A DNA stretch of 32,000 nt from Nanobdellota archaeon. GTDB lineage: Archaea > Nanobdellota > Nanobdellia > Nanobdellales > Nanobdellaceae. The stretch spans positions 600,001 through 632,000 of the forward strand of contig AP031373.1 of assembly GCA_042850255.1 (NCBI GenBank), in the 5' to 3' direction. The translations under genes and the position numbers were made by a program. The notes below the pieces were generated by a model that had not been told where the DNA came from, ran no database searches, and saw only the letters and a program-made list of their open reading frames with translations. Of the stretch, positions 3,544 to 31,539 are shown piece after piece (the first letter of the stretch is position 1; every line of letters starts with the position of its first letter).

Positions 3544-4263
3544 ATGGAAAAAAGAGCTGGTGCCGGAACAGTTTTATTAGTTTTAATAATAATTGGATTA
3601 ATTATATATATAGCTACTGGTGGTAATTTGAGTAAACTTCAAAGTTATATACAAAAATTTTCAAATGGAAGCAATATATCAATACCATCTTCGATTAGTG
3701 GAGGCTTTCCTAGTTCTAGCTCATCGGGGTCTAATTTTGTTGCATATTTACAAGCAACAACATCGATTTCCGGACCTACTAGTTGTTTAGGGAATATTCA
3801 GTTCTCGTTATCTTCAGGTGAAATAATAGAAAATAATAATCAGGTATCTGAACAATTATCTTATAGCAATGGTCAAAATGAATTTATTAACGTATATTTA
3901 GGTAATAATGGAAATATAAATTATGCAACTCTTAATAATTCTGAAGGTACATACCTTTACTATGATTCAAGTAATGTGACAAAATTAATAAGTTCAGATC
4001 TGCTTCTTGTTGCTTTGGTTGCCCATGAATCAGGAAACTCCTTTCAAGCATATAATACTACTATAGATTCTGTACCATCATCATGTTTCTATGCTTCGAA
4101 TACATCATCTACACAGACTGTTGAAGTAAAAACATGCCTCTTAAGAACAAGTACTAGTATGCTTCCAATTATTACATATGAAGAAATAAAAGTAAATAAA
4201 GAATGTTCTGGACAACAAGCATCAGGAGAATGGAAATTCTATATCTATGAAGTTCAACCATAA
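3544..4263 (+). CDS. membrane-anchored or secreted Ser/Asn-rich protein with conserved Cys pattern
   Basis: N-terminal hydrophobic anchor GTVLLVLIIIGLIIYIA, a Ser-rich linker, several N-x-S/T sequons, and a C-terminal SSC...KTC...KEC pattern. TATA-like atttataaat lies about 25 nt upstream. Confidence 0.6.
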   Translation: MEKRAGAGTVLLVLIIIGLIIYIATGGNLSKLQSYIQKFSNGSNISIPSSISGGFPSSSSSGSNFVAYLQATTSISGPTSCLGNIQFSLSSGEIIENNNQVSEQLSYSNGQNEFINVYLGNNGNINYATLNNSEGTYLYYDSSNVTKLISSDLLLVALVAHESGNSFQAYNTTIDSVPSSCFYASNTSSTQTVEVKTCLLRTSTSMLPIITYEEIKVNKECSGQQASGEWKFYIYEVQP

Positions 4264-5497: not shown

Positions 5498-6571
5498 TTA
5501 ATTCTTCTCATTTAATTTTTCTTCTAAAAATTTTATCAAATTATTTATATCCTTTTCATATATCAACCCTCCAGCAGCCTTTGGATGTCCACCTCCAGAT
5601 ATTCCATATTTTTCTGCAAATTCCTTCATTGCTAATCCTACATCTAATTTTCCACTCTGAAATCTAACAGATACGCTATATTTTCTATTTTTTCCTTTAA
5701 ATAATCTTCCAAATAACTTTTCTTTTAATGACAAAACTATTACTATTTTATCTGGATAGAATGCGGATAAGAATGTAGATAAAGTTCCTGAAGATTTAGA
5801 TTTTAATACTAGTATTTTATCCGACTCATATATTTTTTCAGAATCTACTAAATATTCATAATATTTCATTGCTACATTTTTTAACTTTTTAATATTAAAT
5901 TCTTTAACAAATTCTTTAATATCTAAAGCATTTTTTATATTGCTAGATATTTCGTATGGATGTGCTATTAAAAATAAATAGAAATATATTATATATGGTA
6001 TTGTAAATGATCTTCCTGTATAGAAGCTTCTATAATTTTTTCTTAGATCTTCTATTAATTCTTTATCATTATCAAACATAAAATCACCAATTGCACCTAC
6101 TGATGCTATTAGAGAATACTTTGAAAATTCATCATTAAATAATGTTTTTCCAATTCTATATACTATACTAGTAGTACATATTTCTAAATTAAATAAAGCT
6201 CTTACATCAAAATATAATAAATTATTTGGTAAATTCTTTGGTACAGATCTTTTATGATGATCTAAATATATTATTTTTTTATCTTGGTGTCTTTTTGCTA
6301 AACTAATTAAATTTTTATCTTCCATTGGGGTATCTAAAAATATTATCGTATTTATATTTTTATCATTGAATAATATCCCATCCAATATTCTAATTAAATC
6401 TATATTATTTTCTCCTCTCAATCTAAAATACTCTTTATACTTTTTTCCAAGTTTTTCTAATATTATTTTCATTAAACTCAAAGACATTTTTCCATCTAAA
6501 TCTGAATCTGCTACAATCAATATTTCTTCTTTAGAATTTTTTATTTCTTCAGATACATTTGAAAAATCCAT
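5498..6571 (-). CDS. DHH/DHHA1 phosphoesterase (RecJ/NrnA-like), catalytic motifs intact
   Basis: Motif I VADSDLDG, motif II IIFLDTP, motif III YLDHHK, motif IV GAIGDFM, DHHA1 GGGHPKAAGG. Confidence 0.8.
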   Translation of the reverse strand: MDFSNVSEEIKNSKEEILIVADSDLDGKMSLSLMKIILEKLGKKYKEYFRLRGENNIDLIRILDGILFNDKNINTIIFLDTPMEDKNLISLAKRHQDKKIIYLDHHKRSVPKNLPNNLLYFDVRALFNLEICTTSIVYRIGKTLFNDEFSKYSLIASVGAIGDFMFDNDKELIEDLRKNYRSFYTGRSFTIPYIIYFYLFLIAHPYEISSNIKNALDIKEFVKEFNIKKLKNVAMKYYEYLVDSEKIYESDKILVLKSKSSGTLSTFLSAFYPDKIVIVLSLKEKLFGRLFKGKNRKYSVSVRFQSGKLDVGLAMKEFAEKYGISGGGHPKAAGGLIYEKDINNLIKFLEEKLNEKN

Positions 6572-6612
6572 AGTAATGTAAAAATATAGGTATATATTTA
6601 AAAATTATATAT

Positions 6613-6685
6613 GCCCCGGTAGCTCAGTTGGTAGAGCGATGGACTCGTAATCCATAGGTCCCGGGTTCAAGTCCCGGCCGGGGCT
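6613..6685 (+). tRNA. tRNA-Thr (anticodon CGU)
   Basis: GCCCCGG-TA-GCTC-AGTTGGTA-GAGC-G-ATGGA-CTCGTAA-TCCAT-AGGTC-CCGGG-TTCAAGT-CCCGG-CCGGGGC-T. Perfect 73-nt cloverleaf, no intron, no encoded CCA. Confidence 0.95.
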
Positions 6686-7340
6686 ATCTTCTATAGTTGT
6701 AATTTCTAAAATAATAATAGTCATGATAATTATATGGATTTTGATAATTATAATAATTTTGATTATTATTAGAATATTGTAAATTATCTTCAGCGAAATT
6801 ATCTATATCATTTTCTTCATTTTTAATTGTTTCCTCCTCTTCTTCAAGTATTTCTGGGATATATCTATCTATAATAAATATAATTATGTATATAAATGGG
6901 AAAAATATAACTAATGATAATAAATTTATTAGACTGAATGGTACTACATTATAAATAAATGGAGTTAACATTATCTGGAAATATGCAAAAAATCCTGTTT
7001 TTCCTATTGCTTTTGCAATTCTCTTTCTTCTTATTGCAGAAATTAATGCAAATAATGATAAAAATAAAAATAATAGAGATATAAACAATTTACCAGGATC
7101 ATTTAGTTCATTATGTTTATATAATTCTCTTAGCCAATCTATAGAAACCCAAGAATATATTACGCTATTTGCAATCGCATGACTATAATGTATTCCCTTT
7201 TTTTCTACAAAGAATTCCATGCTAAACCATGTAATATAAACAGGATATGTAATCCAAATTATATTTAAATTTATTAAGGTATTAATAAATATATTTAACC
7301 ATGAGTTTGTTAATAAGATTAATATTTGAATTATATCCAT
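6684..7340 (-). CDS. polytopic membrane protein with acidic linker and Asn/Tyr-rich C-terminal tail
   Basis: Several hydrophobic helices, then EILEEEEETIKNEENDIDNF, then LQYSNNNQNYYNYQNPYNYHDYYYFRNYNYRR. The stop codon overlaps the tRNA-Thr 3' end by 2 nt. Confidence 0.55.
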   Translation of the reverse strand: MDIIQILILLTNSWLNIFINTLINLNIIWITYPVYITWFSMEFFVEKKGIHYSHAIANSVIYSWVSIDWLRELYKHNELNDPGKLFISLLFLFLSLFALISAIRRKRIAKAIGKTGFFAYFQIMLTPFIYNVVPFSLINLLSLVIFFPFIYIIIFIIDRYIPEILEEEEETIKNEENDIDNFAEDNLQYSNNNQNYYNYQNPYNYHDYYYFRNYNYRR

Positions 7341-7403: not shown

Positions 7404-8015
7404 ATGGGTTTGGGTTTGCTAATTTATGTATTAATTCTTATATTAGATATAGGAATATCTATTTGGAATTCTTATAATTCAGGAAAAGCTTTGGAAATAA
7501 TGAAAATTGAAAATATAGAAAGCGATTGGCCAAGAATGGTTGCATATTCGGCTTTAATATTATCATTTGCAGGTGCTGCTTATGGAGATCTAGGTATATT
7601 ATCAATTATAGCATATTATTTAGGTTATATAAATTTATATACATTAACTAGTCTATTATCATTTTCCTTTATAGTATTTGGATTTTTAATAATAATATTC
7701 GGATTAGTTATAACAGTTAATAGTATAATTGTTGCATATAAAACAAAAAGTTTTACATCAATATTTGTTGCTATATATAATAGTATTGCAACAATATGGG
7801 ATATTTATTCATATATTCAGGGATTTTCATATGCATTTAATACATTAAGAGGATTTGTTTCAAATGATAGGGATTCTCAAGGAGTATTTGTAGTATTAAT
7901 TATTATAGCAGTATTAATAGCAATATTTATGGTATATGGTGCTTATAAACATGGAAGAGCTTCCGCATATAAATATAGTAAATCTATATCTGTACCATCT
8001 CCAATTGAATCTTAA
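7404..8015 (+). CDS. hypothetical polytopic membrane protein
   Basis: 203 aa with about 5 hydrophobic helices. The stop overlaps the next start (TAATG). No family recognised. Confidence 0.55.
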   Translation: MGLGLLIYVLILILDIGISIWNSYNSGKALEIMKIENIESDWPRMVAYSALILSFAGAAYGDLGILSIIAYYLGYINLYTLTSLLSFSFIVFGFLIIIFGLVITVNSIIVAYKTKSFTSIFVAIYNSIATIWDIYSYIQGFSYAFNTLRGFVSNDRDSQGVFVVLIIIAVLIAIFMVYGAYKHGRASAYKYSKSISVPSPIES

Positions 8016-11474: not shown

Positions 11475-12368
11475 ATGGATGAGAATAAAGCAAGATATAA
11501 GTATAAGATATTAAAAGATAATATTAGAAAATATCTTGATAGTGATCCAATAGCTAGAATAGTTATCGAATCTTTAAATAATATGGATAAGGAAGATATT
11601 GTTAAAATTGAACTGGTAGGTTTTAATAAATGGGTAGTAAAATATATAGATAATAAAAAAGGTTTAGAAAAAATAATATTTCAGAGTTATTGTTTGGATA
11701 TGGTCAATGAAAATATTTACGATAATTTCATTATGCAATGTACATTAGAAGGGGCTTCCTCATTATCAGAATATTATTTTGAATATATAAAACCCCCAAA
11801 AGAAGGAAAAATATTTGGTAAATTAATAGGAAATATTATTAAATATACGATTCGTAATTTTTTTGAAGTTTTATATATGGATAAACAACTAGAACCTTAT
11901 AGTCAAATTGCAGATGATATAAAGAAAATTTTGGAAAATAAAGAAATTAAAATATATTTAGATAGTATTAAAGAAGAACTATCTGTTTTATATATTAATA
12001 TATATGGAAATGAAAAATATAATTATTTGGAAATAATTAATAATATTGAAAATAAATTAAGTGATGATTTATATTATAAAGATAACAATATTAAAAACTA
12101 TATTGATAATATATCATTTATAATTTCTAGAATATTGGTCGAAAGTATAAAAGAGTCTAATTTATTATTTAAGGATCTTATAAAATCTACATGCAGTTTA
12201 GAGGAATTCATAAAATTATTAAAAGATTTATATAATAAAACAGAAATTAAAAAATATTTATTTAAGGATGAAATGAATAGTTTAATTAATATAATATATG
12301 AGATATCAAATATTAGTTATAAATTGGAAAAGATAAAAGGAACTACAGAGGACATAAAAATAAACTAA
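11475..12368 (+). CDS. hypothetical protein (helical, Lys/Glu/Asn-rich)
   Basis: 297-aa ORF starting 7 nt after the archease stop. No family recognised. Confidence 0.5.
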   Translation: MDENKARYKYKILKDNIRKYLDSDPIARIVIESLNNMDKEDIVKIELVGFNKWVVKYIDNKKGLEKIIFQSYCLDMVNENIYDNFIMQCTLEGASSLSEYYFEYIKPPKEGKIFGKLIGNIIKYTIRNFFEVLYMDKQLEPYSQIADDIKKILENKEIKIYLDSIKEELSVLYINIYGNEKYNYLEIINNIENKLSDDLYYKDNNIKNYIDNISFIISRILVESIKESNLLFKDLIKSTCSLEEFIKLLKDLYNKTEIKKYLFKDEMNSLINIIYEISNISYKLEKIKGTTEDIKIN

Positions 12369-13246: not shown

Positions 13247-13301
13247 TTCTACATATTTTTAAAAAAGATATATAAATTTATTATTTCATTCAATAAATTA
13301 T

Positions 13302-15107
13302 ATGAGAACTTTTAACTATTTGATTGAGATAATATTAGTTATATCATTAATACTTGTATATGTTACAACAATAAGATTTCCATCTTCTCCATCTTCTTAT
13401 ATTTCTGACTTTAATAAAAAATACTTACTATATAGTGGTCTGGGAAGTACTTATAATAATAATTTTTTATCTTATATTCAAACAAACCAATTTGATATAA
13501 TATCTTATCTATATTATTGGTTATTTTCTGGAGATCTTTCATATTATGATCTAAAGATGAGTTTTTATTATCCAATAAATTTTTATAATTTGGGAAATTA
13601 TTCTTGTTATGAATTTTTATTTCCATTTCCATATTTAGGTAGTAATCTTTATTATACTCAGCCTATAAATGGTATTAATCAGAATTTTTTCTTAATATAT
13701 AATGAGAATCAAGATCTATGTGGAAACTTTACATCTACATTAGACTGGAATATGTTAATAGTAAATTATTATACTTCAAATAATATTTCTTTATATTTAA
13801 ATGTTTCAAATTTAATAAATAATATTATAGATCCATATTCATTTTTTGCTTATAATATAAATTTATATCCAATACAAATTAGTTATTTGAATGTTTCATA
13901 TGTTTCTACAAATTTAGGAATAGTTCCCGTAGTAAATTTATCATTAAATTTACCTCCAAATTATAATTCTCCAATAATAATAATATTTAGATCAGAAAAT
14001 AAAACATATAATTTCTTGAATTTTAATAATTATCAATTAGTTAATAATTTACCTGCTCAATATGTTTCTTATTCATATTCTTCATTTGGTTGGGAAACAT
14101 TATATGTATCTCCTCGATGTTTTGATAGTAAAAATATATTAACCTTTACAAATAATGATCAATTTCTTAATTTAACAAATTCTTCATACTATCCATCTAC
14201 ATTATCTGGAAATACTTCTATAACTATTGTAGCATGGATCTATGTAAATAGCTATTATTCTTCTTCCTGTGCAGATGGAGAAAATTATGTATCTGCGCTA
14301 GCAACTATACCAGGAGTAAATAGTTATCCAGGATCTACATTTAGACAAATATTATTACCAATAAATGGACAATATTATATTGGGGTAGATGAGAGCAGTG
14401 GTGTAGGATATCTACCAAATTATCCAATACAACTAGGACAATGGATATTTGTTTTTTGGATATATAATAATTCTGATGAAAATTTCTATGGAGGATTTAT
14501 AAATCAAACAGGATTATATTATGGGCGATTACAACCTGCATCTGGATTTAATCAATTGTATCCTTTAAATTTATATTATCCACCAAATGAAACATTATAT
14601 CTAGGAACTCCTACTTCTTTATATTCACCCGTTTGTTCTTTTTTAGGTAGTATATATGTAATAGCATTTTATAATAAAGCATTAAGTATTAATCAAATAG
14701 AAAATATATATTATAGTGAAGATTTTGAGCAATACAATCCAGTATTAATTTATTATGGGTATAATTATAATCCAAATACAGGAATTTTATACGGAAATAA
14801 TCAAAATTATAATTTACAAGCATATAATAATCCTGTATTAGTAAATTCTATATTACCATATGATCAATTAATAATAGATTATTCTATACCTCCAAATTAT
14901 CAGGATCAGATACAATCTTCTAATATTAATATTTCATATTGCTATCCAGTACCAACTTATTATCCATATCCATTAATTCCTTCAATACAATATGATTTTT
15001 GGGATTATTTTGGTGTAAGCCCAGTACCAAATAATTATAAATTTGATAGCAGTATAGTATTTCCATATGGCCTAGGATTTTCTAAATTTACAATCTATGG
15101 CTCGTAG
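13302..15107 (+). CDS. large sequon-rich surface protein with LamG/ConA-like lectin domain
   Basis: N-terminal anchor LIEIILVISLILVYV. LamG-type pattern at about 14150-14720: SITIVAWIYVNS ... GQWIFVFWIYNNSDENFYGGFIN ... ETLYLGTP ... FLGSIYVIAFYNKALSINQIENIY. At least a dozen N-x-S/T sequons. Confidence 0.7.
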   Translation: MRTFNYLIEIILVISLILVYVTTIRFPSSPSSYISDFNKKYLLYSGLGSTYNNNFLSYIQTNQFDIISYLYYWLFSGDLSYYDLKMSFYYPINFYNLGNYSCYEFLFPFPYLGSNLYYTQPINGINQNFFLIYNENQDLCGNFTSTLDWNMLIVNYYTSNNISLYLNVSNLINNIIDPYSFFAYNINLYPIQISYLNVSYVSTNLGIVPVVNLSLNLPPNYNSPIIIIFRSENKTYNFLNFNNYQLVNNLPAQYVSYSYSSFGWETLYVSPRCFDSKNILTFTNNDQFLNLTNSSYYPSTLSGNTSITIVAWIYVNSYYSSSCADGENYVSALATIPGVNSYPGSTFRQILLPINGQYYIGVDESSGVGYLPNYPIQLGQWIFVFWIYNNSDENFYGGFINQTGLYYGRLQPASGFNQLYPLNLYYPPNETLYLGTPTSLYSPVCSFLGSIYVIAFYNKALSINQIENIYYSEDFEQYNPVLIYYGYNYNPNTGILYGNNQNYNLQAYNNPVLVNSILPYDQLIIDYSIPPNYQDQIQSSNINISYCYPVPTYYPYPLIPSIQYDFWDYFGVSPVPNNYKFDSSIVFPYGLGFSKFTIYGS

Positions 15108-17091
15108 TCAATTATATTTATATACTACTGTAGTTTTATTATTAACATTATTATATTTTTTATCAAATTTAGATACAATCTCACAAGAATTACAATTTTA
15201 TTCTAATGTTTATCCTAAATATGGGGAAATATATAAATTAGAAAATGGGAATTATATATATCAGAATATAATAAATTTATATGGATCTACACTAATTCCA
15301 TTTACAGTTTATTATAATTGTTCTTATAATTTATTACAAATTCCAAATTATTTTAATTCAACTCATGTAATTGTATTAGATCAAGATTTTGATTTTTTAC
15401 CTTCCTATCCATCAAATGATTTTGTCACATTCGAAATAATAAACAATAATTCTATAGAATATCAAAATAGTTATTGTATATTTAATGGGTATGAAGTATA
15501 TAATAACAATTTTAATATAACATTTCAAGAATCTGGAAATAATTATTATCAAATAATATTTTATCCACAGAGTATTTTTACTATAAATAAACAATATTTA
15601 GATGAATTAAATAATATATATTCAGTTAATTTTCAATATTTAAATAATTATCAATGTTTATCTGGGCAAATAAATTCTATATCTTTACAGAAAGTATTAA
15701 CAGGAATTACCATTAATTATTTAAATATTAGTAATGCTGTATTAAGTGGAAATAATGTACAAGTAACATTATTCAATGATAATGTTTGTCCAATTAATTT
15801 AAATTATATTTATTATGATAATTATGATATTCCAGAATTTGGTACTAGTTTTAATACATCTTCAGGAAATTATATAATAAATCAAAATCAAGGATTATTA
15901 GTTTATTATAATTATACTTATGATGATTTGTATTTTTGTTTAGAATCTTTGGGAGAACAAAATTGTATACCAATAAATAATGTACCTGTAGAATATTATG
16001 TTCCTTTAACTATTTATAATTCACAAAATATTCCAACTCCACAACCATTTCAGCAAATGATTTATATTCCAGATAATTCTAATATTTATAACTATATAGA
16101 TTCTAATGGACAAAATGTATTATTCTTTAATCCAATAAATGGACAAATATTTTATTCATGGTTTGAAGGTAATAATGGTACTGGATATATTTGGTGGGTA
16201 AAGATTCCAAATGGGATACCTGCGAATAGTAATTATACTATTTATATGGGAATTGGATCAAGTACTACAGATTATTACCAACTATTTTATCCTTATGTAG
16301 GTGCGTCTCCACAAGTTATTCAGGGATATGATAATGGACAAAATGTATTTATAGCATATGGATACTTTAATAATAATTTTAATGGATGGAGTGGATATAT
16401 CTTTTATGATAATTTTGCTCCTAATGCAACGCCTTACGGAATTGAAATGCTAAATGGTACTAATACCGGATGTGAAGGAACGTACATCTTGCCTCCAAAT
16501 AATGAAAATATTCTTGAAATACCATTAATTGTAGAAGAAGCTTGGTATGAAAGTTCTGGGGCAGATGCAAATACTATATCTTTATTTGGAAACACAAATA
16601 GTCAAGTTTTTGCAGATAGTGTAGGTCCTATTACTTGTGGCGGAGGTACACCTGCTTCAAACTCTTCTACATTTGTACAGTTTGAATATTATCCTGGAAC
16701 TTGTAATCAACAATATCCTGACCCAGCTTATTATTTAAAATCTGCATATGCCAATAGTATACTATCTTGGACATCTTTTACTACATCTGCAGGTACATTT
16801 TATACATATTTAATTGTTAACAACACTTATGCACAAACTGGTTGGTATCAATATAGTTCTTCTCAAGTTTGGGCACCTTTAACATTATTAGATACATATT
16901 CTATTAATCAAAATTCATCTACTTATGCTAATCTAAATTATAGTCCATTCCAATATCCTACATTAGAAATAGGAGCTGGGGATTGTGCACCTTCGTATCA
17001 ATATGTAGAATGGGTAGTTGCTAGAGCATATCCTCCAAATGGTGTTATGCCTTCAATTTATACAGGAAATCTAAACCCCTGGCCGCCTTAA
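15097..17091 (+). CDS. large sequon-rich surface protein with DUF2341-like plus C-terminal jelly-roll-like domain
   Basis: N-terminal anchor LYTTVVLLLTLLYFL. DUF2341-like stretch at about 15991-16260: YYVPLTIYNSQNIPTPQPFQQMIYIP...NVLFFNPINGQIFYSWFEG...GYIWWVKIPNGIPANSNYTIYMGIG. C-terminal YVEWVVARAYPPNGVMPS resembles the W-V-R-x-Y..P.P ending of such modules. The start overlaps the upstream gene by 11 nt. Confidence 0.65.
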   Translation: MARSQLYLYTTVVLLLTLLYFLSNLDTISQELQFYSNVYPKYGEIYKLENGNYIYQNIINLYGSTLIPFTVYYNCSYNLLQIPNYFNSTHVIVLDQDFDFLPSYPSNDFVTFEIINNNSIEYQNSYCIFNGYEVYNNNFNITFQESGNNYYQIIFYPQSIFTINKQYLDELNNIYSVNFQYLNNYQCLSGQINSISLQKVLTGITINYLNISNAVLSGNNVQVTLFNDNVCPINLNYIYYDNYDIPEFGTSFNTSSGNYIINQNQGLLVYYNYTYDDLYFCLESLGEQNCIPINNVPVEYYVPLTIYNSQNIPTPQPFQQMIYIPDNSNIYNYIDSNGQNVLFFNPINGQIFYSWFEGNNGTGYIWWVKIPNGIPANSNYTIYMGIGSSTTDYYQLFYPYVGASPQVIQGYDNGQNVFIAYGYFNNNFNGWSGYIFYDNFAPNATPYGIEMLNGTNTGCEGTYILPPNNENILEIPLIVEEAWYESSGADANTISLFGNTNSQVFADSVGPITCGGGTPASNSSTFVQFEYYPGTCNQQYPDPAYYLKSAYANSILSWTSFTTSAGTFYTYLIVNNTYAQTGWYQYSSSQVWAPLTLLDTYSINQNSSTYANLNYSPFQYPTLEIGAGDCAPSYQYVEWVVARAYPPNGVMPSIYTGNLNPWPP

Positions 17092-24973: not shown

Positions 24974-25194
24974 TTTTTATTATTATTTGATTTTATCATT
25001 TCAGCCATAGCATTATAATATATAAGTAAGATTTTTTAATTTTAAGACTTAATCATGGGAAAAATTTCCGAAAATTCCTTATTCTTAATTATATGGATAC
25101 TATGTATTAAAAGTTTTCTATTTATAAATTTTTGTTTACCTTGGATATTCTAAGTAAACAAGTATTTATAAATAATTGTTTCCTTAATATACTT

Positions 25195-26442
25195 ATGGTA
25201 AACGATTTAAAGGAAAGATTATTATTATGGAAAGAATGGGAACCACCTAAATTAATAGAAAGAGATATAAGATTACCTGAAGGAAATGATATAATTGCAA
25301 TTATTGGACCTAGAAGATCTGGAAAAACTTATTTAATGTTCCAAATAATTAAAAATTTAATAAATAATGGTGTACCAAAAGAAAATATATTATACATAAA
25401 TTTTGATGATATTGTTTTTAGAAAATATGATTTAAATAAAATATTTGAAACTTATTTTGAACTATTTAATCCAAAAGGAAATATATATTTATTTTTTGAT
25501 GAAGTCCAAGAATTAAAAGATTATCCAGTATGGTTAAGGACTTTACATGATAGAGGATACAAAATATTTATTACAGGATCTTCATCAAAACTAATGATTA
25601 AAGAAATAAGTAAAGAATTGAGGGGTAGATATATTTCAAAAATACTTTTACCATTTTCTTTTAAAGAATTTCTAAAATTAAAGAATTTTAAATTTGAAGA
25701 TACTTCAGAAAAAAGAGGAAAAATAAAAAATTTATTGCTAGAATATTTAAAATTTGGGGGTTTTCCAGAAGTATTATTAATTGAAAATAATATAGATAAA
25801 ATAGAAAAACTAAATTCTATATATGAAACAACATTTTATAGAGATTTTGTAGAAAGATATAAAATTAGGGAAATAAATATTGCAAAGGAATTATTAGAAT
25901 ATTTAATATCAAATATATCTAATTTTATATCAATATCTAGAATTTATAATATATTTAAATCTATAAATATTAATGTTTCTAAAAGAACATTATGGAAATA
26001 TTATAATTATATTCTAGAAAGTTTAATATTATTTGAATCAAGGTTATATACTTATTCTAAAAGAAAAGAAATAATAAATCCTAGAAAAATATATGTAAAT
26101 GATCTAGGTATTGCAAACTTATTTAAAGATTATGAAATCGGATATTTAATGGAAAATTTAGTATATTTAGAATTATTTAGAAAAGGTATAGAACCAAATT
26201 ATTTAAAAATAAATGGTAAAGAAATAGATTTTCTATATAAGGAAAATAATTTGTTAAAATTAATAGAGGTTACATATGAAGTTGATGAGGAACATATAAA
26301 TAAAGTAAAAAAAGCTTTAGATTTTTTAAAGATTAGTGAAAGTTTAATTATTAGTTGGAATGAAGAAAATGAAATAAAATATAATAATAAAAAAATAAAT
26401 ATTATTCCTTTATGGAAATTTTTATTAAATACTACTTTATAG
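25195..26442 (+). CDS. AAA+ ATPase of the AAA_14/DUF4143 (COG1373-like) family, copy A
   Basis: Walker A IIGPRRSGKTY, Walker B LFFDEVQ, ITGSSS, LRGR, GGFPE, ERYKI. C-terminal nuclease-like EIDFL...LIEVTY and IIPLWKFLLN. Start moved from the TTG at 25132 to ATG 25195 by alignment with copy B. TATA-like gtatttataaat lies about 25 nt upstream. Confidence 0.85.
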   Translation: MVNDLKERLLLWKEWEPPKLIERDIRLPEGNDIIAIIGPRRSGKTYLMFQIIKNLINNGVPKENILYINFDDIVFRKYDLNKIFETYFELFNPKGNIYLFFDEVQELKDYPVWLRTLHDRGYKIFITGSSSKLMIKEISKELRGRYISKILLPFSFKEFLKLKNFKFEDTSEKRGKIKNLLLEYLKFGGFPEVLLIENNIDKIEKLNSIYETTFYRDFVERYKIREINIAKELLEYLISNISNFISISRIYNIFKSININVSKRTLWKYYNYILESLILFESRLYTYSKRKEIINPRKIYVNDLGIANLFKDYEIGYLMENLVYLELFRKGIEPNYLKINGKEIDFLYKENNLLKLIEVTYEVDEEHINKVKKALDFLKISESLIISWNEENEIKYNNKKINIIPLWKFLLNTTL

Positions 26443-27370
26443 AAAAATAGTATATTCCTATATCATTAGCATAATTTGATACATTTCCTGGTACTATATA
26501 TTCTATTACTCCATTTACTGGTTCTATTTCCAAAATTGGTTCTGGATTTATAGGTTCTATTAATATACCCTGAGAAAATAAAATATTATTATAGTAATAA
26601 GATATAAGTTTTGGAATATATTCTATTACATTATTATAATCTATGTAATATTGTTTTATTATTGTAAATGTTATAGAATAATTATTTGTTGTTGTAATAT
26701 TTATAACATATATATTTTGTTTTATTTCCAATGGTTGTAAAATTATTTGTGTATTATTTCCTAATATTTTTTCTAAAATATTTTTTATTTCATTTTCTAT
26801 ACTTTGATTATTATTATATAATAAATAACTTTGCTGATATATTATACTAACATTATTTATATATTGTATTGGAATAATACTTTCTATTTCACCTTCTATA
26901 CCCAAATTTTCCAATATATTTTCTATATTTTCTGTAACATTTTCTGGAGCTTCTGGTATATTAGTTAAGGAAGAAAAAGATATAACATTTAGCGTAAATT
27001 CTTTTTGTAATGGTAAAATAACGGACCTATTTCCAGATATCAGTTCTAAATATTCAAATGTATATATATTTGAATTAGAAATAAAAAATATAGCATTATA
27101 ATCTTTATAATTATTTGTATAAAAGTCTACACTACAAAAAGATTGATTATTATTTGTTATTAAACATAATTTATTTACATTATTTATATTTAAATTTATT
27201 GGATAATTTGGAGAAATATATATTTCAATATATGGATTCCATTGTTGATAATTTAATATTGTATTTGGACCTGATACTATTATACTTGGAGGAGACCATA
27301 AAGGAAATATTATTGTTAATATAAATAATATACCTGCTATAGGAATACCTAAATATTTTTTAATTTCCAT
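26432..27370 (-). CDS. secreted or membrane-anchored Asn/Ile-rich protein
   Basis: N-terminal anchor GIPIAGILFILTIIFPLW, many N-x-S/T sequons, no family recognised. Divergent from 27422..29554. Confidence 0.55.
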   Translation of the reverse strand: MEIKKYLGIPIAGILFILTIIFPLWSPPSIIVSGPNTILNYQQWNPYIEIYISPNYPINLNINNVNKLCLITNNNQSFCSVDFYTNNYKDYNAIFFISNSNIYTFEYLELISGNRSVILPLQKEFTLNVISFSSLTNIPEAPENVTENIENILENLGIEGEIESIIPIQYINNVSIIYQQSYLLYNNNQSIENEIKNILEKILGNNTQIILQPLEIKQNIYVINITTTNNYSITFTIIKQYYIDYNNVIEYIPKLISYYYNNILFSQGILIEPINPEPILEIEPVNGVIEYIVPGNVSNYANDIGIYYFSIK

Positions 27371-27421: not shown

Positions 27422-29554
27422 ATGAATATTAATAAAATAAAGTTATTATTAAAATCCGAATATTTTTATCTATTTTTAGTAGTTTTATTATTATCTATAG
27501 ATATTACAAGATTTGGAAATATTTATAATATAGATCCAGATATTTTTCCATATTTTAACAATATAGTTTCATATAAATATTTTTTATCAACATTCTATAA
27601 TTATAATCCTTGGTTAGGTAATATAAATAATTTTAGCATAGTTTCTTTTATTTCTTCATTTCCCTTATTTTTATTTTCTCATATAATATTATCTTTTTTC
27701 TTTCTTTATTTATTTTTATCATTCATAGGATCAATATTTGTTTATAAAATGGTAAAGGAAATTATTGGAGATAATTCTATTTATTCAAAAATATCTGGTA
27801 TTTTATCAGTTATATTTTATATTATTGCTCCTCAATTTTTTAATTTAACTTATGGAGATCCTTTAGGTATATATCAATATTATACAATACCGATTTTTTT
27901 ATATTCTATAAGAAAATATTTTGTTTCAAATTTTAAAGAAAGTATTGGATGGTTTTTTATATTTATACTTACTGGACTGTTATTATTTTATTATAATATC
28001 CCCGTTTATGCACTACCATTTTTTATATTATTTTTAATATTTTTCATATATTATTCTATAGTTTCTATAAGGAAAAAATATTTTGGTAGAGTTATTTTAT
28101 TATTATCTTTAATTTTTGGATTCTTTTTTATTAAATATTCATTTATTATCTATGAATATAATTTATATACAAGTAATATGCATTTTTTAAGAACATCTTT
28201 CCAATTCTGGATGGGAAATTCACAATCTTTACCTTTATTAACAACATTAACGGGAAATCATATATTTTATAATCCATTATATCAATATATATTTATTTTT
28301 ATCTTACCAATAATTTATTCTTTTATAATTTTAAATAAAAAAGTATCTAAAAATAAAGAAATATTATTTTTCTTTATTTCATTTCTAATATTTACATTTT
28401 TATATTCAATGCCGAATGTTCCTTTTTCATCATTTTGGGAAAATTTATTTTATAAATATCCAATAATGGTTGATTTAAGGACTCAATATATTATTATAGC
28501 ACCATTCCAAGGATTTTTAATGGTATATTTAATTGGATTTGGTATTTATGGAATATTAGATTATATAAAAGATAAATTAGGTAAAATTAAAAAATATATA
28601 ATTTATATTTTATTACCAATAATTATTTTAGGATCAAATGCAGATTTAGTATTATTTGGAAGTCCAAGTATTGTTTATATTCCTTCTCAATTTTTAAATA
28701 CAGTTAATTATATTAATTCTCATACAAGTTATACAAATAATGTTATAATCTATCCAATATTTGTTACAGAAAATAGTGAAACCTGGTATAAAGGTAATAA
28801 TATATTTTCATTATTTTTAAAGCCAAATACAATTTTAGGTGGATATTATTATAGTGTTAATAGTTATATTGAAAATATAATTTATAGCGAATATATGAAT
28901 ATTTATAATTCAGATACTTCAAAAAATGCAATAAATTATAATAAAAATTTCTTTTATTTATTTAATGTAAAATATATAATATTTGAAAAGGATGCTATAA
29001 ATACAACAATATTACCAATATATCCATATACATATTTTGTTAATAATACAGTTTCTGGTTTAAATAATTATCAAAATTTAGGAATTATTTCTCTAGTTTA
29101 TAATAATTCATTATATTCAGTTTATTCAACAAATACTAATTCTTCTCTAATATTTTTATCTTATAATAATTATCCAATTGATTATTTATTAAATTCAGAT
29201 AATATTACTGGATTATTAATACCATTAGAAATAGAATATATTTCTCCAATAGAGTATAAAGTAGATATAGATCCTGAATATCTGGATAAAAAAGTATATT
29301 TATATTTTATGATTCCTTATGTAAATGGTTGGAATATTGAAGGAGGAGAATTATTAAATGAAACAAATTATTATGGATATACGCAATTTATTATTATTCC
29401 TGAAAATAATACAATAATACTCTATAATCCTTTAATACAAAATTCAATAAATAAAGGGTTATTGGAAGTATTTTTAGAAATATTATTACCTTTAATATTG
29501 TCTGGAATATTATATAAATTTAGAAATAAAATACCTGAAATAAAATATTTTTGA
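27422..29554 (+). CDS. 710-aa polytopic membrane protein, GT-C glycosyltransferase-like architecture
   Basis: More than 10 hydrophobic helices in the first 420 aa or so. The first loop has YNIDPDIFPYFNN (a D-x-D-type acidic motif). There is a sequon-rich soluble domain of about 260 aa and a final TM, LLEVFLEILLPLILSGILY. Confidence 0.5.
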   Translation: MNINKIKLLLKSEYFYLFLVVLLLSIDITRFGNIYNIDPDIFPYFNNIVSYKYFLSTFYNYNPWLGNINNFSIVSFISSFPLFLFSHIILSFFFLYLFLSFIGSIFVYKMVKEIIGDNSIYSKISGILSVIFYIIAPQFFNLTYGDPLGIYQYYTIPIFLYSIRKYFVSNFKESIGWFFIFILTGLLLFYYNIPVYALPFFILFLIFFIYYSIVSIRKKYFGRVILLLSLIFGFFFIKYSFIIYEYNLYTSNMHFLRTSFQFWMGNSQSLPLLTTLTGNHIFYNPLYQYIFIFILPIIYSFIILNKKVSKNKEILFFFISFLIFTFLYSMPNVPFSSFWENLFYKYPIMVDLRTQYIIIAPFQGFLMVYLIGFGIYGILDYIKDKLGKIKKYIIYILLPIIILGSNADLVLFGSPSIVYIPSQFLNTVNYINSHTSYTNNVIIYPIFVTENSETWYKGNNIFSLFLKPNTILGGYYYSVNSYIENIIYSEYMNIYNSDTSKNAINYNKNFFYLFNVKYIIFEKDAINTTILPIYPYTYFVNNTVSGLNNYQNLGIISLVYNNSLYSVYSTNTNSSLIFLSYNNYPIDYLLNSDNITGLLIPLEIEYISPIEYKVDIDPEYLDKKVYLYFMIPYVNGWNIEGGELLNETNYYGYTQFIIIPENNTIILYNPLIQNSINKGLLEVFLEILLPLILSGILYKFRNKIPEIKYF

Positions 29555-29578: not shown

Positions 29579-29920
29579 ATGGAACAAAAACAAATTCAAT
29601 CTGAGATATTAAATAAAATTAAACAAATTATCTTAGATACTGCTAATAATTATAATATTAAAATAAATAAAATTATATTATTTGGATCTAGGGCTAGAGG
29701 CGATTATAGAGAAGATTCCGATTGGGATATATTAATTATAACTGAAGATAAATTAGATAGAAAAATAGAAAAGGATTTTTATTCAGATGTATCATGGGAA
29801 CTTACTACAGACGATATAATTCCAGCAATAATAATTGTTTCAAAAGAAGAATTTGAGAAATATAAAGATTTAAAAGGTTTTATATATTATTGGGCAGATA
29901 AAGAAGGTATAATACTATGA
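29579..29920 (+). CDS. minimal nucleotidyltransferase (MNT)
   Basis: ILFGSRARGDYREDSDWDILIITED (GSxxRG ... DxD). 113 aa. The stop overlaps the HEPN start (ATGA). Confidence 0.85.
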   Translation: MEQKQIQSEILNKIKQIILDTANNYNIKINKIILFGSRARGDYREDSDWDILIITEDKLDRKIEKDFYSDVSWELTTDDIIPAIIIVSKEEFEKYKDLKGFIYYWADKEGIIL

Positions 29921-30297
29921 AAGAAGATACGAGAGGATTATTAATAATTGCAGAAGATGATCTAAAAGTAGCTAAAGATAATTATAAATTAAATAATTAT
30001 GTAGTAGTTACATTTCATTGCCAACAATCTGTAGAAAAATATTTGAAGGCATATTTAAATTATAAAACAGGATTTCACCCATTTGTTAATTCTATAACTT
30101 ACTTAATAAAGAAATGTATGAAATTAGATAAAGATTTTGAATATTTAAAAGATATAAAAGCAAATATATTGGAAGAATATTATATTGCATATATGTATCC
30201 AACTTTGATGAAAATTACTGAAGAAGATGCAAAAGAATCAATAGATATTGCAGAAAAAGTAAGAGAATTTATATTAAAGAAATTAAATATTCAATAA
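29917..30297 (+). CDS. HEPN domain protein (classical HEPN family partner of MNT)
   Basis: LIIAEDDLKVAKDN, FHCQQSVEKYLKAYL, LEEYYIAYMYP (cognate of L..YYIPTRYP). 126 aa. Confidence 0.75.
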   Translation: MKEDTRGLLIIAEDDLKVAKDNYKLNNYVVVTFHCQQSVEKYLKAYLNYKTGFHPFVNSITYLIKKCMKLDKDFEYLKDIKANILEEYYIAYMYPTLMKITEEDAKESIDIAEKVREFILKKLNIQ

Positions 30298-31539
30298 CCA
30301 TTTCCATAAGGGTATAAATTTTATTTTTCCTTTTTTATTAAACCACGAAATTTCTTTCTCATCTTCATAATCCCAAGTTATTATTATTAATTCTGGATTA
30401 TGTTCTTTAAATAAATCATATCCATGTATTAATGATCTGATTTCTCTTTTATCTATTTCATCATAATTATTTGCATATGTTACATTAATTAATTTAGTTA
30501 TTTCATTATTTTCCTTTATTAAAAAATCAATTTCATATTCATTAGTTTGAAAATAATAAATATTATCCATTAAACCTTTTCTAATAAATTCCAAAAATAC
30601 AATATTTTCCATCTTTCTTCCAATTCCATTTTCTTCCAAATCTAATGATGTATCTGATAAATATACTTTTGGTTTTGATAAATAGGATTTTTTAATAGAA
30701 TAAGAAAATTTTCTTAATAAAAATATAGATAATGTTTCTGGAAGTAAATAAATATATTTCCTTATTGTTTTATTACTAACTTCAGTTATTTGCTTTAATT
30801 GTTTATATATTTTATTTATTGATAATATATTACCATTTGATTGTATTAATGAATACAATAAAAATCTTGCAACTTCTGTATTTTCTATTTTATATCTTTC
30901 AATAAAATCTTTATATAATACTACATTAATATATTCTTTTACAAATTCTTTTTTACTTATTTTTTCTAATACAATATCTGGAAATCCTCCATTTTTTATA
31001 TAATCATATAAATATCCTTCAATTTTTGATATTTCTCTATTATACAAAGGTTCTTTTATATTTATTTTTTTAAATAATAAATATTCTCTAAAAGATAAAG
31101 GTAGTAATATTTTATCAATAAATCTTCCCCTTAAATTTGTAGCAATTTCTTTTGATAATAATTTTGATGAAGAACCTGTAACAATTATTTTATATTTTTT
31201 TCTTTCTACTAATGAATATAAAAAATTTTCCCAATTATTTAAACTTTGTACTTCATCCAAAAATATATATTCAGGTTCTTTTTTATATATTTCTATATGT
31301 TCATTAATAATATCCATAGGATTAATATTTCTTACTTCATAATCTTCAAAATTTACAAATAAATAATCTTCTTCCTTTAAATTTAATTTTTTAATTAAAT
31401 AATATAAGTAAAAACTTTTACCAGATCTTCTAGGTCCTATAATTACTGTAGGATAATTAATATTTATTTCTAATTCTCTAGGATAAACATTTAATTCATT
31501 AACTTCCCTTTTTACTCCTATTAAATAATCTTTAATCAT
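30283..31539 (-). CDS. AAA+ ATPase of the AAA_14/DUF4143 (COG1373-like) family, copy B
   Basis: Walker A VIIGPRRSGKSF, Walker B IFLDEVQ, VTGSSS, LRGR, GGFPD, ERYKI, EIDFL...LINVTY, FIPLWKWLLNI. Confidence 0.85.
   Translation of the reverse strand: MIKDYLIGVKREVNELNVYPRELEININYPTVIIGPRRSGKSFYLYYLIKKLNLKEEDYLFVNFEDYEVRNINPMDIINEHIEIYKKEPEYIFLDEVQSLNNWENFLYSLVERKKYKIIVTGSSSKLLSKEIATNLRGRFIDKILLPLSFREYLLFKKINIKEPLYNREISKIEGYLYDYIKNGGFPDIVLEKISKKEFVKEYINVVLYKDFIERYKIENTEVARFLLYSLIQSNGNILSINKIYKQLKQITEVSNKTIRKYIYLLPETLSIFLLRKFSYSIKKSYLSKPKVYLSDTSLDLEENGIGRKMENIVFLEFIRKGLMDNIYYFQTNEYEIDFLIKENNEITKLINVTYANNYDEIDKREIRSLIHGYDLFKEHNPELIIITWDYEDEKEISWFNKKGKIKFIPLWKWLLNI

Follow-up and report, generated by a model that had tools for sequence, protein, structure and literature searches.

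A pair of overlapping genes of 'Ca. Nanofervidus parviconus' YN1 (gene 1 and gene 2; Table 1) was analyzed within a window of 32,000 nucleotides (nt) (GenBank assembly GCA_042850255.1, contig AP031373.1, positions 600,001 to 632,000), the whole stretch of DNA to which the coordinates given here refer. Strain YN1, which lives obligately on Sulfurisphaera ohwakuensis as an ectosymbiont or parasite, grows at pH 2-3 and 80 °C, and its complete genome of 773 kb (773,326 bp) has a guanine-plus-cytosine (GC) content of 23.4% (PMC11420986), in agreement with the reduced-genome archaeon supposed in an earlier note that had been made from the sequence alone. The same note had described the pair as an overlapping operon for giant, sequon-dense surface proteins; the coordinates, the lengths of 601 and 664 amino acids (aa) and the 11-nt overlap (15097-15107) of the two open reading frames (ORFs) were found to be exact, and chains of this size are not giant. 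Full-length orthologues of both proteins were detected at 57-71% identity (E 1e-211 to 1e-274), and ORFs this long are not expected by chance because the low-GC sequence of the window (18-31%) is rich in stop codons; the comparison with relatives indicates that both are real genes. The family is narrow, since a whole-library HMMER profile search with protein 1 retrieved 20 proteins in total. Gene 1 has 20 full-length orthologues, every one from close nanoarchaeal relatives, and apart from the long and short members of its own family the profile matched P0147, a single LamG-like protein, and repetitive LamG/CHU_C giants, the latter in the terminal LamG motif only. A homologue search with a profile of the short forms gave nine matches, none of them new.

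The gene order around the pair, secF (minus strand), gene 1, gene 2 and an RNase P p30-like gene (minus strand), was shared among the relatives of YN1, namely Nanobdella aerobiophila (603 and 648 aa), N. acidilobi (605 aa and a split gene 2), Nanobsidianus stetteri and several Nanopusillus metagenome-assembled genomes (MAGs) with the same order, the Nanopusillaceae MAG DRC bin67 (345 and 396 aa) and Nanoclepta minutus (343 and 288 aa, cores only), and judged from these genomes the pair is an old syntenic unit in this nanoarchaeal group. The start codon of gene 2 (ATG 15097) precedes the stop codon of gene 1 (TAG 15105-15107) by 8 nt, and the junction TATGG(C/T)TCGTAG was invariant, except for one C/T change, in YN1, Nanobdella, N. 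acidilobi, the DRC bin67 MAG and Nanoclepta. It codes at once for the family-wide C-terminus ...Y-G-S-stop of protein 1 and for the family-wide N-terminus M-A/V-R-S of protein 2. The invariance of this dual-coded junction in five lineages is the strongest argument for a translational coupling of the two genes, which would result in the stoichiometric co-production of two proteins that may also form a complex. The two-gene overlapping operon proposed earlier thus gained support from both the synteny and the junction. In N. acidilobi (CP010514, 11808-13770 of the locus record) the gene 2 orthologue occupies two ORFs, Nps_01545 (482 aa) and Nps_01550 (160 aa), a split for which a pseudogene, a frameshift in the cultured strain or an error of its assembly could account.

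The neighbours of the pair are housekeeping genes coding for archease, SecF, an RNase P p30-like protein, a Bud32/RIO-type kinase, a major facilitator superfamily (MFS) transporter and phenylalanyl-tRNA synthetase (PheRS). The secF gene is divergent, 55 bp upstream of gene 1, and the TATA-like element of the spacer may act as the promoter of gene 1; its position shortly before the ATG suggests a leaderless or very-short-leader mRNA. At the other end, the p30-like gene is convergent with gene 2, and there is no space for a terminator between them because their stop codons overlap, with 4 nt in common (17088-17091).

Table 1. Features of the gene pair and of the spacer upstream of it (window coordinates)
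Feature	Position	Strand	Description
Divergent spacer secF/gene 1	13247-13301		55 bp; TATA-like ATATATAAA at 13268-13276, ~30 nt before the ATG, read from the sequence
Gene 1	13302-15107	+	601 aa; N-terminally anchored, Cys-paired, sequon-bearing, predicted extracellular; core plus inserted LamG-like domain
Protein 1 residues 1-25, MRTFNYLIEIILVISLILVYVTTIR	13302-13376	+	3-residue basic leader, then hydrophobic helix with invariant Glu9
Protein 1 residues 26-297	13377-14192	+	N-terminal part of ancestral core, beta-rich, without known family
Protein 1 residues 298-511	14193-14834	+	Inserted LamG-like (concanavalin A (ConA)-superfamily) domain with its own Cys pair (C323, C445)
Protein 1 residues 512-601	14835-15104	+	C-terminal part of ancestral core with the family-wide ...YGS end; aligns to the C-terminus of P0146
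Junction TATGGCTCGTAG	15096-15107	+	Gene 1 frame Y-G-S-stop; shifted by one base (gene 2 frame) M-A-R-S
Gene 2	15097-17091	+	664 aa; N-terminally anchored, predicted extracellular; core plus appended DUF2341/lectin-fold module
Protein 2 residues 1-25, MARSQLYLYTTVVLLLTLLYFLSNL	15097-15171	+	4-residue leader ending R-S, Gln, then hydrophobic helix
Protein 2 residues 26-297	15172-15987	+	Ancestral core with six invariant Cys (75, 127, 187, 231, 281, 290)
Protein 2 residues 298-400	15988-16296	+	DUF2341-like beta-sandwich, first half of the mobile module, starts at YVPLTIYNSQNIPTPQPFQQ; predicted local distance difference test (pLDDT) 64-78
Protein 2 residues 401-654	16297-17058	+	Predicted ConA/L-type-lectin-fold jelly roll, ends in YQYVEWVVARAYPPNGVMPS; most variable region among orthologues

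A hydropathy scan located one hydrophobic segment per protein (residues ~1-29) and no other segment in either of them, which bears out the single N-terminal anchor assigned to each by the earlier note. The enrichment in Asn and Tyr that had also been pointed out was confirmed (protein 1: N 12.6%, Y 13.5%, S 10.8%, K 1.3%; protein 2: N 13.4%, Y 11.7%, K 0.9%), and the low Lys content of the pair compares with about 11% in the neighbouring ORFs, which are mostly cytoplasmic. Protein 1 contains 14 and protein 2 contains 15 N-x-S/T sequons (2.3 per 100 aa, compared with mostly 0-1.4 in the neighbouring ORFs), so that the sequon density is present as claimed, but an excess beyond composition was rejected by shuffling (z ~1 for both proteins). 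Selection on the sequons of protein 1 is instead visible, in the alignment of its orthologues, in conservation and not in count, as their Asn residues showed a conservation of 0.95 versus 0.66 for other Asn residues (Mann-Whitney p = 9e-4), and 10 of the 14 sequons were retained in at least 13 of 14 orthologues. No significant difference in conservation between sequon Asn and other Asn residues was seen for protein 2. The six Cys residues of protein 1 are invariant among orthologues, four lying in the core and two in the insert, and protein 2 has six in the core and four in the module; these even numbers per module fit with disulfide-bonded extracellular domains. Both proteins are probably extracellular, and their glycosylation and co-production are, as predictions, well supported too.

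To define the architecture of protein 1, we relied on its short homologues. The N-terminus, in which M1, F4, Y6, L7, E9, I10, I11 and L12 are invariant among orthologues, is retained in them (e.g. MKRGLSFSVEIIL), and residues 1-25 may serve as a signal-anchor or, alternatively, as a pilin-like signal of class III. The 345-aa short homologue P0146 showed 30% identity (E 4e-17) to residues 1-280, and because the short homologues align on both flanks only (residues 1-280 and 523-601), residues ~281-522 are an insertion. Several observations argue for a LamG-like nature of this insert. It carries the LamG motif FLGSIYVIAFYNKALSINQIENIY; Laminin_G_3 (PF13385) was matched by 9 of 14 orthologues (best E 9.4e-5), some gene 1 orthologues being named 'LamG domain-containing' by NCBI; and hhalign against genuine LamG repeats gave a probability of 56% (E 1.1e-4) over residues 375-467, including the terminal strand motif FLGSIYVIAFYNKALSINQI, where the LamG terminal signature is a C-terminal G-x-ID-x-V-x-IYNRALS-like strand pair. 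In addition, residues 298-511 were 33% identical (E 9e-21) to P0147 (276 aa), which matches Laminin_G_3 end to end (model positions 10-150 of 151, E 0.0021). These alignments suggest that the LamG-like signature of the insert is real but weak in this copy, with support across the family. Surface proteins with Laminin_G_3 resemble residues ~298-470 in the terminal LamG motif and in a weak profile similarity, and the domain of protein 1 differs from theirs in that its match is sub-threshold in this copy, in that it sits inside another domain and not in tandem, and in that it has a conserved extension to residue 511.

The structural model of protein 1 obtained with AlphaFold2 (AF2) from 14 orthologues had a mean pLDDT of 48.9, with values of 60-89 for residues ~130-270 and below 50 over most of residues 275-540, and a Foldseek search with this low-confidence model gave no match at E <= 1e-3. 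No fold was called for the protein 1 core or for the LamG-like insert because the model was too poor. The nearest non-nanoarchaeal relative of the insert, P0147, which also has a weak PHROG 22373 match, is encoded at 6001-6831 in the JGI hot-spring metagenomes 3300036468 and 3300036346, on a contig of 48% GC where genes for a 1741-aa protein, a glycosyltransferase and a TFIIB-type zinc-ribbon protein are among those nearby. A viral or plasmid origin of this contig, from another archaeon, is possible, which would make that lineage a candidate donor of the insert.

The start M-x-R-S-Q of protein 2 is invariant out to Nanoclepta, its core is 30% identical (E 3e-12) to that of DRC bin67, and the six core Cys residues are shared in the alignment of the gene 2 products of Nanobdella, N. 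acidilobi, bin67 and Nanoclepta. The Nanoclepta protein (288 aa) stops where the protein 2 core stops and its whole length aligns with residues 1-~297, so that residues 298-664 are an appendage. As the earlier note had stated for the N-terminal ~300 residues of each protein, no known family was recognized: the cores had no related Pfam, NCBIfam, PHROG or PDB entry, an NCBIfam search with both proteins gave no match, and PDB sequence searches with profiles of both families, with both N-termini and with SIRV1 ORF562 returned chance-level matches only. Paralogy of the two cores was rejected, as hhalign paired the N-terminal helices only, with a probability of 14%. Taken together, these comparisons suggest that a two-gene core (~340 plus 290 aa) is the older part, found bare in Nanoclepta, and that modules were added in the thermoacidophilic (acid-spring) clade that includes Nanopusillus, Nanobsidianus, Nanobdella and YN1. 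The gain of ConA-superfamily modules by both proteins in this clade, with the LamG-like domain inserted into protein 1 and the DUF2341 plus L-type-lectin fold appended to protein 2, is well supported.

The appended module was examined at the levels of sequence and predicted structure. DUF2341 was matched by 20 of 54 relatives of protein 2 (best E 5.5e-6), and PF10102 is precomputed for P0054, P0056 and P0089. AF2 confidence was low for the protein 2 core; with the 54-sequence alignment, ten-residue block means for residues 300-645 were mostly 64-93, and mostly 72-93 from residue ~420, with residues 394-418 and 590-606 below a pLDDT of 50. Foldseek searches of the PDB with the module gave 147 matches at E <= 1e-3, and the top 50 were all L-type lectins, namely legume lectins, the concanavalin A precursor, VIP36 and ERGIC-53 (E ~2e-6, probability 1.00, template modelling (TM) score (target) 0.53-0.63). 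The predicted model thus supports a jelly-roll/lectin fold for residues ~400-645 at the fold level only, and carbohydrate binding by it is putative. The DUF2341-like segment followed by a lectin-type jelly roll that had been anticipated was therefore recovered, the C-terminal motif VEWVVARAYPPNG is present in protein 2 and family-wide, and the structure prediction that had been called for yielded a lectin fold for the protein 2 module but not for protein 1.

A ConA-like fold also houses GH16-type glucanases and polysaccharide lyases. The modules might accordingly be glucanase-like or lyase-like enzymes that cut host S-layer glycans to open the contact site, a role for which the nearly invariant acidic strand PLIVEEAWY could be considered and which would recall the pectin-lyase-like and thermopsin-like proteins that the Nanobdella authors proposed for host-envelope degradation. 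The top 50 structural neighbours were, however, all non-catalytic lectins, no glycoside hydrolase or lyase family was matched and no recognised catalytic motif was found, and we regard an enzymatic function as very improbable.

The protein 2 module behaves as a discrete reusable unit that runs from ...TI(Y/T)N(S/N)Q..PTP.PFQQ to ...YPPNGVMPS. In the same genomes it is found behind archaellin-type N-termini (MKSISPII...) in YN1_6700 (P0060) and many others, some of them named 'flagellin-like', and, once or twice per protein, behind Sec signal peptides in chains that have Thr-rich stalks or a C-terminal anchor (Nps_03075, Nps_03080). Among 24 full-length orthologues the lectin-fold domain showed a mean pairwise identity of 71%, compared with 88% for the core. 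In the metagenomic P0052, P0055 and P0058 the lectin-fold domain was only 24% identical, whereas the anchor, core and DUF2341 part were 62-65% identical, and the exchanged domain still ends ...VYPPNGVMPS; this looks like a cassette replacement within a conserved scaffold.

The N-termini allow another reading, according to which both proteins are type IV pilin-like subunits with class III signals that a prepilin peptidase would cut after R-S/T, forming a minor-pilin/tip-adhesin complex on a type IV pilus (T4P)-like or attachment-organelle filament with the lectin modules at the fibre end. Very short basic leaders stand family-wide directly before ~20 hydrophobic residues (MRT plus 22; MARS plus ~21), the motifs M-[KR]-[STG]-[FLI]-x-Y-x-[VI]-E-[IL]-I-L (gene 1) and M-x-R-S-Q (gene 2) are invariant, and the conserved Glu in the protein 1 helix and the Gln after R-S in protein 2 recall pilin signatures. 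The archaellin-N-type paralogues that carry the same C-terminal module start with MKS followed by ISPII, likewise with [KR]-S. However, position -1 is S/T (KA or RG in a few relatives) and not the G/A of the FlaFind rule, the predicted N-terminal helix ends at residue ~23, before the invariant Pro27 of protein 1, at 600-660 aa the mature proteins would be large pilins, no Pilin_N, Arch_flagellin or TIGR-type match was found in Pfam or NCBIfam for the two proteins and the gene 1 orthologues, and the N-termini match no solved pilin in the PDB.

Genomic context bears on this pilin-like reading as well. Makarova et al. (2016) suggested that the DUF2341 proteins of Methanococcus T4P loci act as pilus-tip adhesins, and noted that some nanoarchaeal T4P ATPases are without identified cognate pilins. 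Protein 2 resembles the large euryarchaeal DUF2341 adhesins (arCOG03508; Makarova et al. 2016) in combining a DUF2341-like domain with a pilin-like N-terminus, and the adhesin role is putative in both; in contrast to theirs, which lie inside T4P loci, none of five syntenic loci of the pair contains a T4P ATPase, platform protein or peptidase gene. This missing linkage is a weak counter-point because an archaellin-type paralogue (Nanobsidianus) is equally unlinked, being alone among housekeeping genes, and the second 'rough' appendage and the thorn-like features on the archaella of Nanobdella count in favour of the pilin-like reading. On balance, we consider it unlikely that the two proteins are pilin-like subunits.

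Relatives of the protein 2 module were also found among viruses. A tblastn search of the module against 50,697 phage and virus genomes matched 46 records, all of them viruses of Sulfolobales, including Rudiviridae (SIRV1, 4, 8 and 10; ARV1-3; SRV; SMRV1; MRV1; SSRV1; SBRV1) and Bicaudaviridae (SMV1, SMV2). At least 80% of the module was covered in 21 of the 46 records (95-97% among the matches listed), at 27-33% identity (best E 7e-27), and some of the viral homologues are annotated DUF2341. A further 34 viral loci were found in IMG/VR, none closer than 45% identity. PHROG 7548 matched residues 296-654 (E 1.7e-24, 87.7 bits, profile positions 235-581 of 591). In a structural search of viral models, the top two matches were a 1311-aa protein (28% identity) and a 'DUF2341 domain-containing protein' of Sulfolobales Beppu rod-shaped virus 1, and TPX of TTV1 and a protein of a Sulfolobales filamentous virus named 'putative lectin' came lower in the list. 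The LamG-like insert of protein 1 gave no match in the same virus collection, so that only the protein 2 module has viral relatives.

The viral homologues are virion structural proteins. SIRV1 ORF562 (gp31) adjoins the gene of the minor structural protein ORF1070, the MRV1 homologue (ORF21-601) is annotated 'putative viral structural protein', and the SMV1 homologue is a segment of the 1550-aa gp10, beside genes for virion structural and major head proteins. Mass spectrometry reportedly located the SIRV2 and SRV orthologues of ORF562 in virions. The C-terminal two thirds of the rudivirus ORF562/P564 family (SIRV1 gp31, MRV1 ORF21-601, PHROG 7548), together with SMV1 gp10, align end to end with protein 2 residues 296-654 at E 7e-27 to 1e-10, with the shared motifs ITITNSQ..PTP.PFQQ, YSW.E, W..P.GIPANS.TIYM, YPY.G, YDNG.NVF and R.YPPNGVMPS, and the owners of these proteins are, like YN1, parasites of thermoacidophilic Crenarchaeota. 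The viral proteins differ from protein 2 in being virion components and in having neither the N-terminal anchor nor the nanoarchaeal core; they carry an unrelated ~230-aa N-terminal part of their own or enclose the module within a chain of 1550 aa. Protein 2 does not have the full-length architecture of PHROG 7548, and gene 2 stands in a cellular housekeeping context. A search for SIRV1 ORF562 in the PDB found no solved structure, and the literature on an earlier link between nanoarchaeal proteins and rudiviral structural proteins yielded nothing usable.

The explanation that we favour, although we give it only an even chance, is that the locus encodes a coupled, glycosylated and stoichiometric host-contact adhesin pair specific to this nanoarchaeal group. 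A single mRNA would start from the 55-bp spacer between secF and gene 1, and ribosomes ending gene 1 at the TAG would restart at the ATG of gene 2, giving chains in a ratio of ~1:1, as the junction invariant in five lineages suggests. Both chains would be exported and then anchored or processed via their M-R-S/T plus hydrophobic N-termini, disulfide-bonded and N-glycosylated at conserved sequons; the two cores would associate; and the lectin-type modules would project outward and bind the glycosylated surface of the Sulfolobales host (S-layer, pili), providing recognition and attachment. Host binding by the modules is proposed because of their fold, because the viral homologues are confined to Sulfolobales viruses, because the module is reused on archaellin-like and membrane-anchored paralogues, and because its variability is the highest, with a cassette swap. 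The homology of the protein 2 module to structural proteins of Sulfolobales virions strengthens the attachment reading. The hosts of YN1 and Nanobdella belong to the order Sulfolobales, host surfaces are heavily glycosylated and lectin-stainable, Nanoarchaeota surface proteins show an excess of non-synonymous single-nucleotide polymorphisms (SNPs), and for Nanobdella a part of lectin-like proteins in host recognition has already been put forward (Kato et al., bioRxiv 10.1101/2023.10.27.564410).

Several points weigh against an adhesin pair of this kind. The adhesin function is deduced indirectly, and localisation, glycosylation, complex and ligand are predictions. Neither domain reached its Pfam cut-off in the YN1 copy: protein 1 gave no Pfam match at E <= 1 and stayed below the gathering score of PF13385 (27.6 bits), so that the LamG signature that had been called clear holds at the family level but not in this copy, and DUF2341 (PF10102) scored 12.5 bits (E 0.21, residues 342-391) compared with a gathering score of 23.4 bits, whereas relatives match both domains. 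In sequence, the protein 2 module and true lectins are 6-12% identical. Binding by canonical L-type lectins depends on Ca/Mn sites, and because such sites would be protonated at pH 2-3 any binding chemistry of the module must differ from the Ca/Mn type. The core domains had a pLDDT below 50 over most of both. The N. acidilobi proteome gave no detection of the orthologues Nps_01540 and Nps_01545, for which no abundance is listed; this non-detection is weak or uninformative because so few tryptic peptides of 7-30 aa are usable, just three for protein 1 and one for protein 2 (computed for the YN1 proteins, not for the orthologues). The literature on the function of rudiviral ORF562/564, the viral homologue of the module, gave nothing usable. 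Finally, the module is present in N. acidilobi, whose host, Acidilobus, is not a member of Sulfolobales.

The pair might also be a structural component of the envelope, with modules that bind the glycosylated S-layer of the nanoarchaeon itself and anchor it to the membrane in a SlaB-like manner, and not the host. The pair is syntenic next to secF even in lineages without lectin modules, which suggests a housekeeping envelope role of the cores; membrane anchoring is combined with a large extracellular part, and the surface of N. acidilobi is itself glycosylated, as seen by staining with wheat germ agglutinin (WGA). However, a structural role would leave unexplained both the fast-evolving, cassette-swapped lectin domain and the confinement of the homologues to virion proteins of Sulfolobales viruses, and the S-layer or anchor candidates are other proteins, YN1_5000 and YN1_2560 (PMC11420986) and MJ1_0160 and MJ1_0707. 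For this last reason the unconventional cell-envelope layer suggested in the earlier note is unlikely, and a structural role of the pair, in more general terms, appears to us quite unlikely.

Going further than the favoured adhesin pair, the DUF2341 plus lectin-fold cassette (PHROG 7548) might have been horizontally exchanged between nanoarchaeal ectoparasites and Sulfolobales viruses. The pair would then be a host-specificity determinant, maybe at a pilus tip or at the cone or portal of the attachment organelle, that engages the receptor used by the virions (an S-layer glycan or a pilus) and supplies pilin-like substrates for the orphan T4P ATPases. This proposal is speculative, and we hold it to be doubtful.

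This group was already known to have lectin-bearing surface proteins. The surface proteins of Nanobdella aerobiophila (e.g. MJ1_0179) share with the YN1 pair an N-terminal helix, ConA-like domains and many sequons, and they come from the same organism group; the likeness extends to its lectin- and archaellin-like proteins, since YN1_6700 and relatives bear the protein 2 module behind an archaellin-type N-terminus. The YN1 pair differs from the Nanobdella lectin-like proteins in having another core, without known family, and in being a coupled two-gene unit, and it was not discussed by Kato et al., the Nanobdella orthologue being annotated 'family U32 unassigned peptidase'. New here are a core pair that is coupled and dual-coded, modules grafted onto it step by step, and the occurrence of one module in virion proteins of Sulfolobales viruses as well.

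Other ORFs of the window also have surface features. The 239-aa product of 3544-4263 (+) is rich in Ser (16.7%) and Lys-poor, has 7 sequons and starts with a short basic leader plus a hydrophobic helix (MEKRAGAGTVLLVLIIIGLIIYIA); it had no family match and is a candidate pilin-like or surface protein. The ORF at 26432-27370 (-) codes for a 312-aa N-anchored protein with 9 sequons, the only one of the window above compositional expectation (z = 2.1), and divergent from it, 27422-29554 (+) codes for a 710-aa protein with ~12 transmembrane segments and a large C-terminal soluble domain, whose topology recalls GT-C glycosyltransferases or AglB and which had no Pfam or NCBIfam match.

Among the remaining genes, a 297-aa Lys/Glu-rich ORF (11475-12368, +) lies between archease and secF in YN1, and because it is missing at that position in N. 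acidilobi, Nanobdella, DRC bin67 and Nanoclepta it appears to be a lineage-specific insertion into the conserved synteny. Two divergent small multi-pass membrane proteins without family match (6684-7340, -, 218 aa; 7404-8015, +, 203 aa) are kept at the same position in N. acidilobi and Nanobdella. The genes at 25132-26442 (+), 29579-30297 (+) and 30283-31539 (-) belong to a region with two AAA_14/DUF4143 ATPase genes around a nucleotidyltransferase-HEPN pair of the MNT-HEPN toxin-antitoxin type, and this region of a very small genome may be a defence or mobile island.

Few nanoarchaeon-host systems have been cultivated, YN1 and Nanobdella being two of them, and the attachment organelle of these two has been imaged, with its proteins and the host-recognition protein yet to be identified. 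If the modules were internal to the envelope, the finding would shrink to another lineage-specific surface glycoprotein pair. Under the reading that we favour, the locus is a concrete and conserved host-recognition candidate with separable parts, the coupled core pair and the two lectin-type modules. If this is true, it would provide a first functional handle on the rudiviral ORF562/P564 family, and it would amount to a parallel between a cellular parasite and the viruses that attack the same host order.

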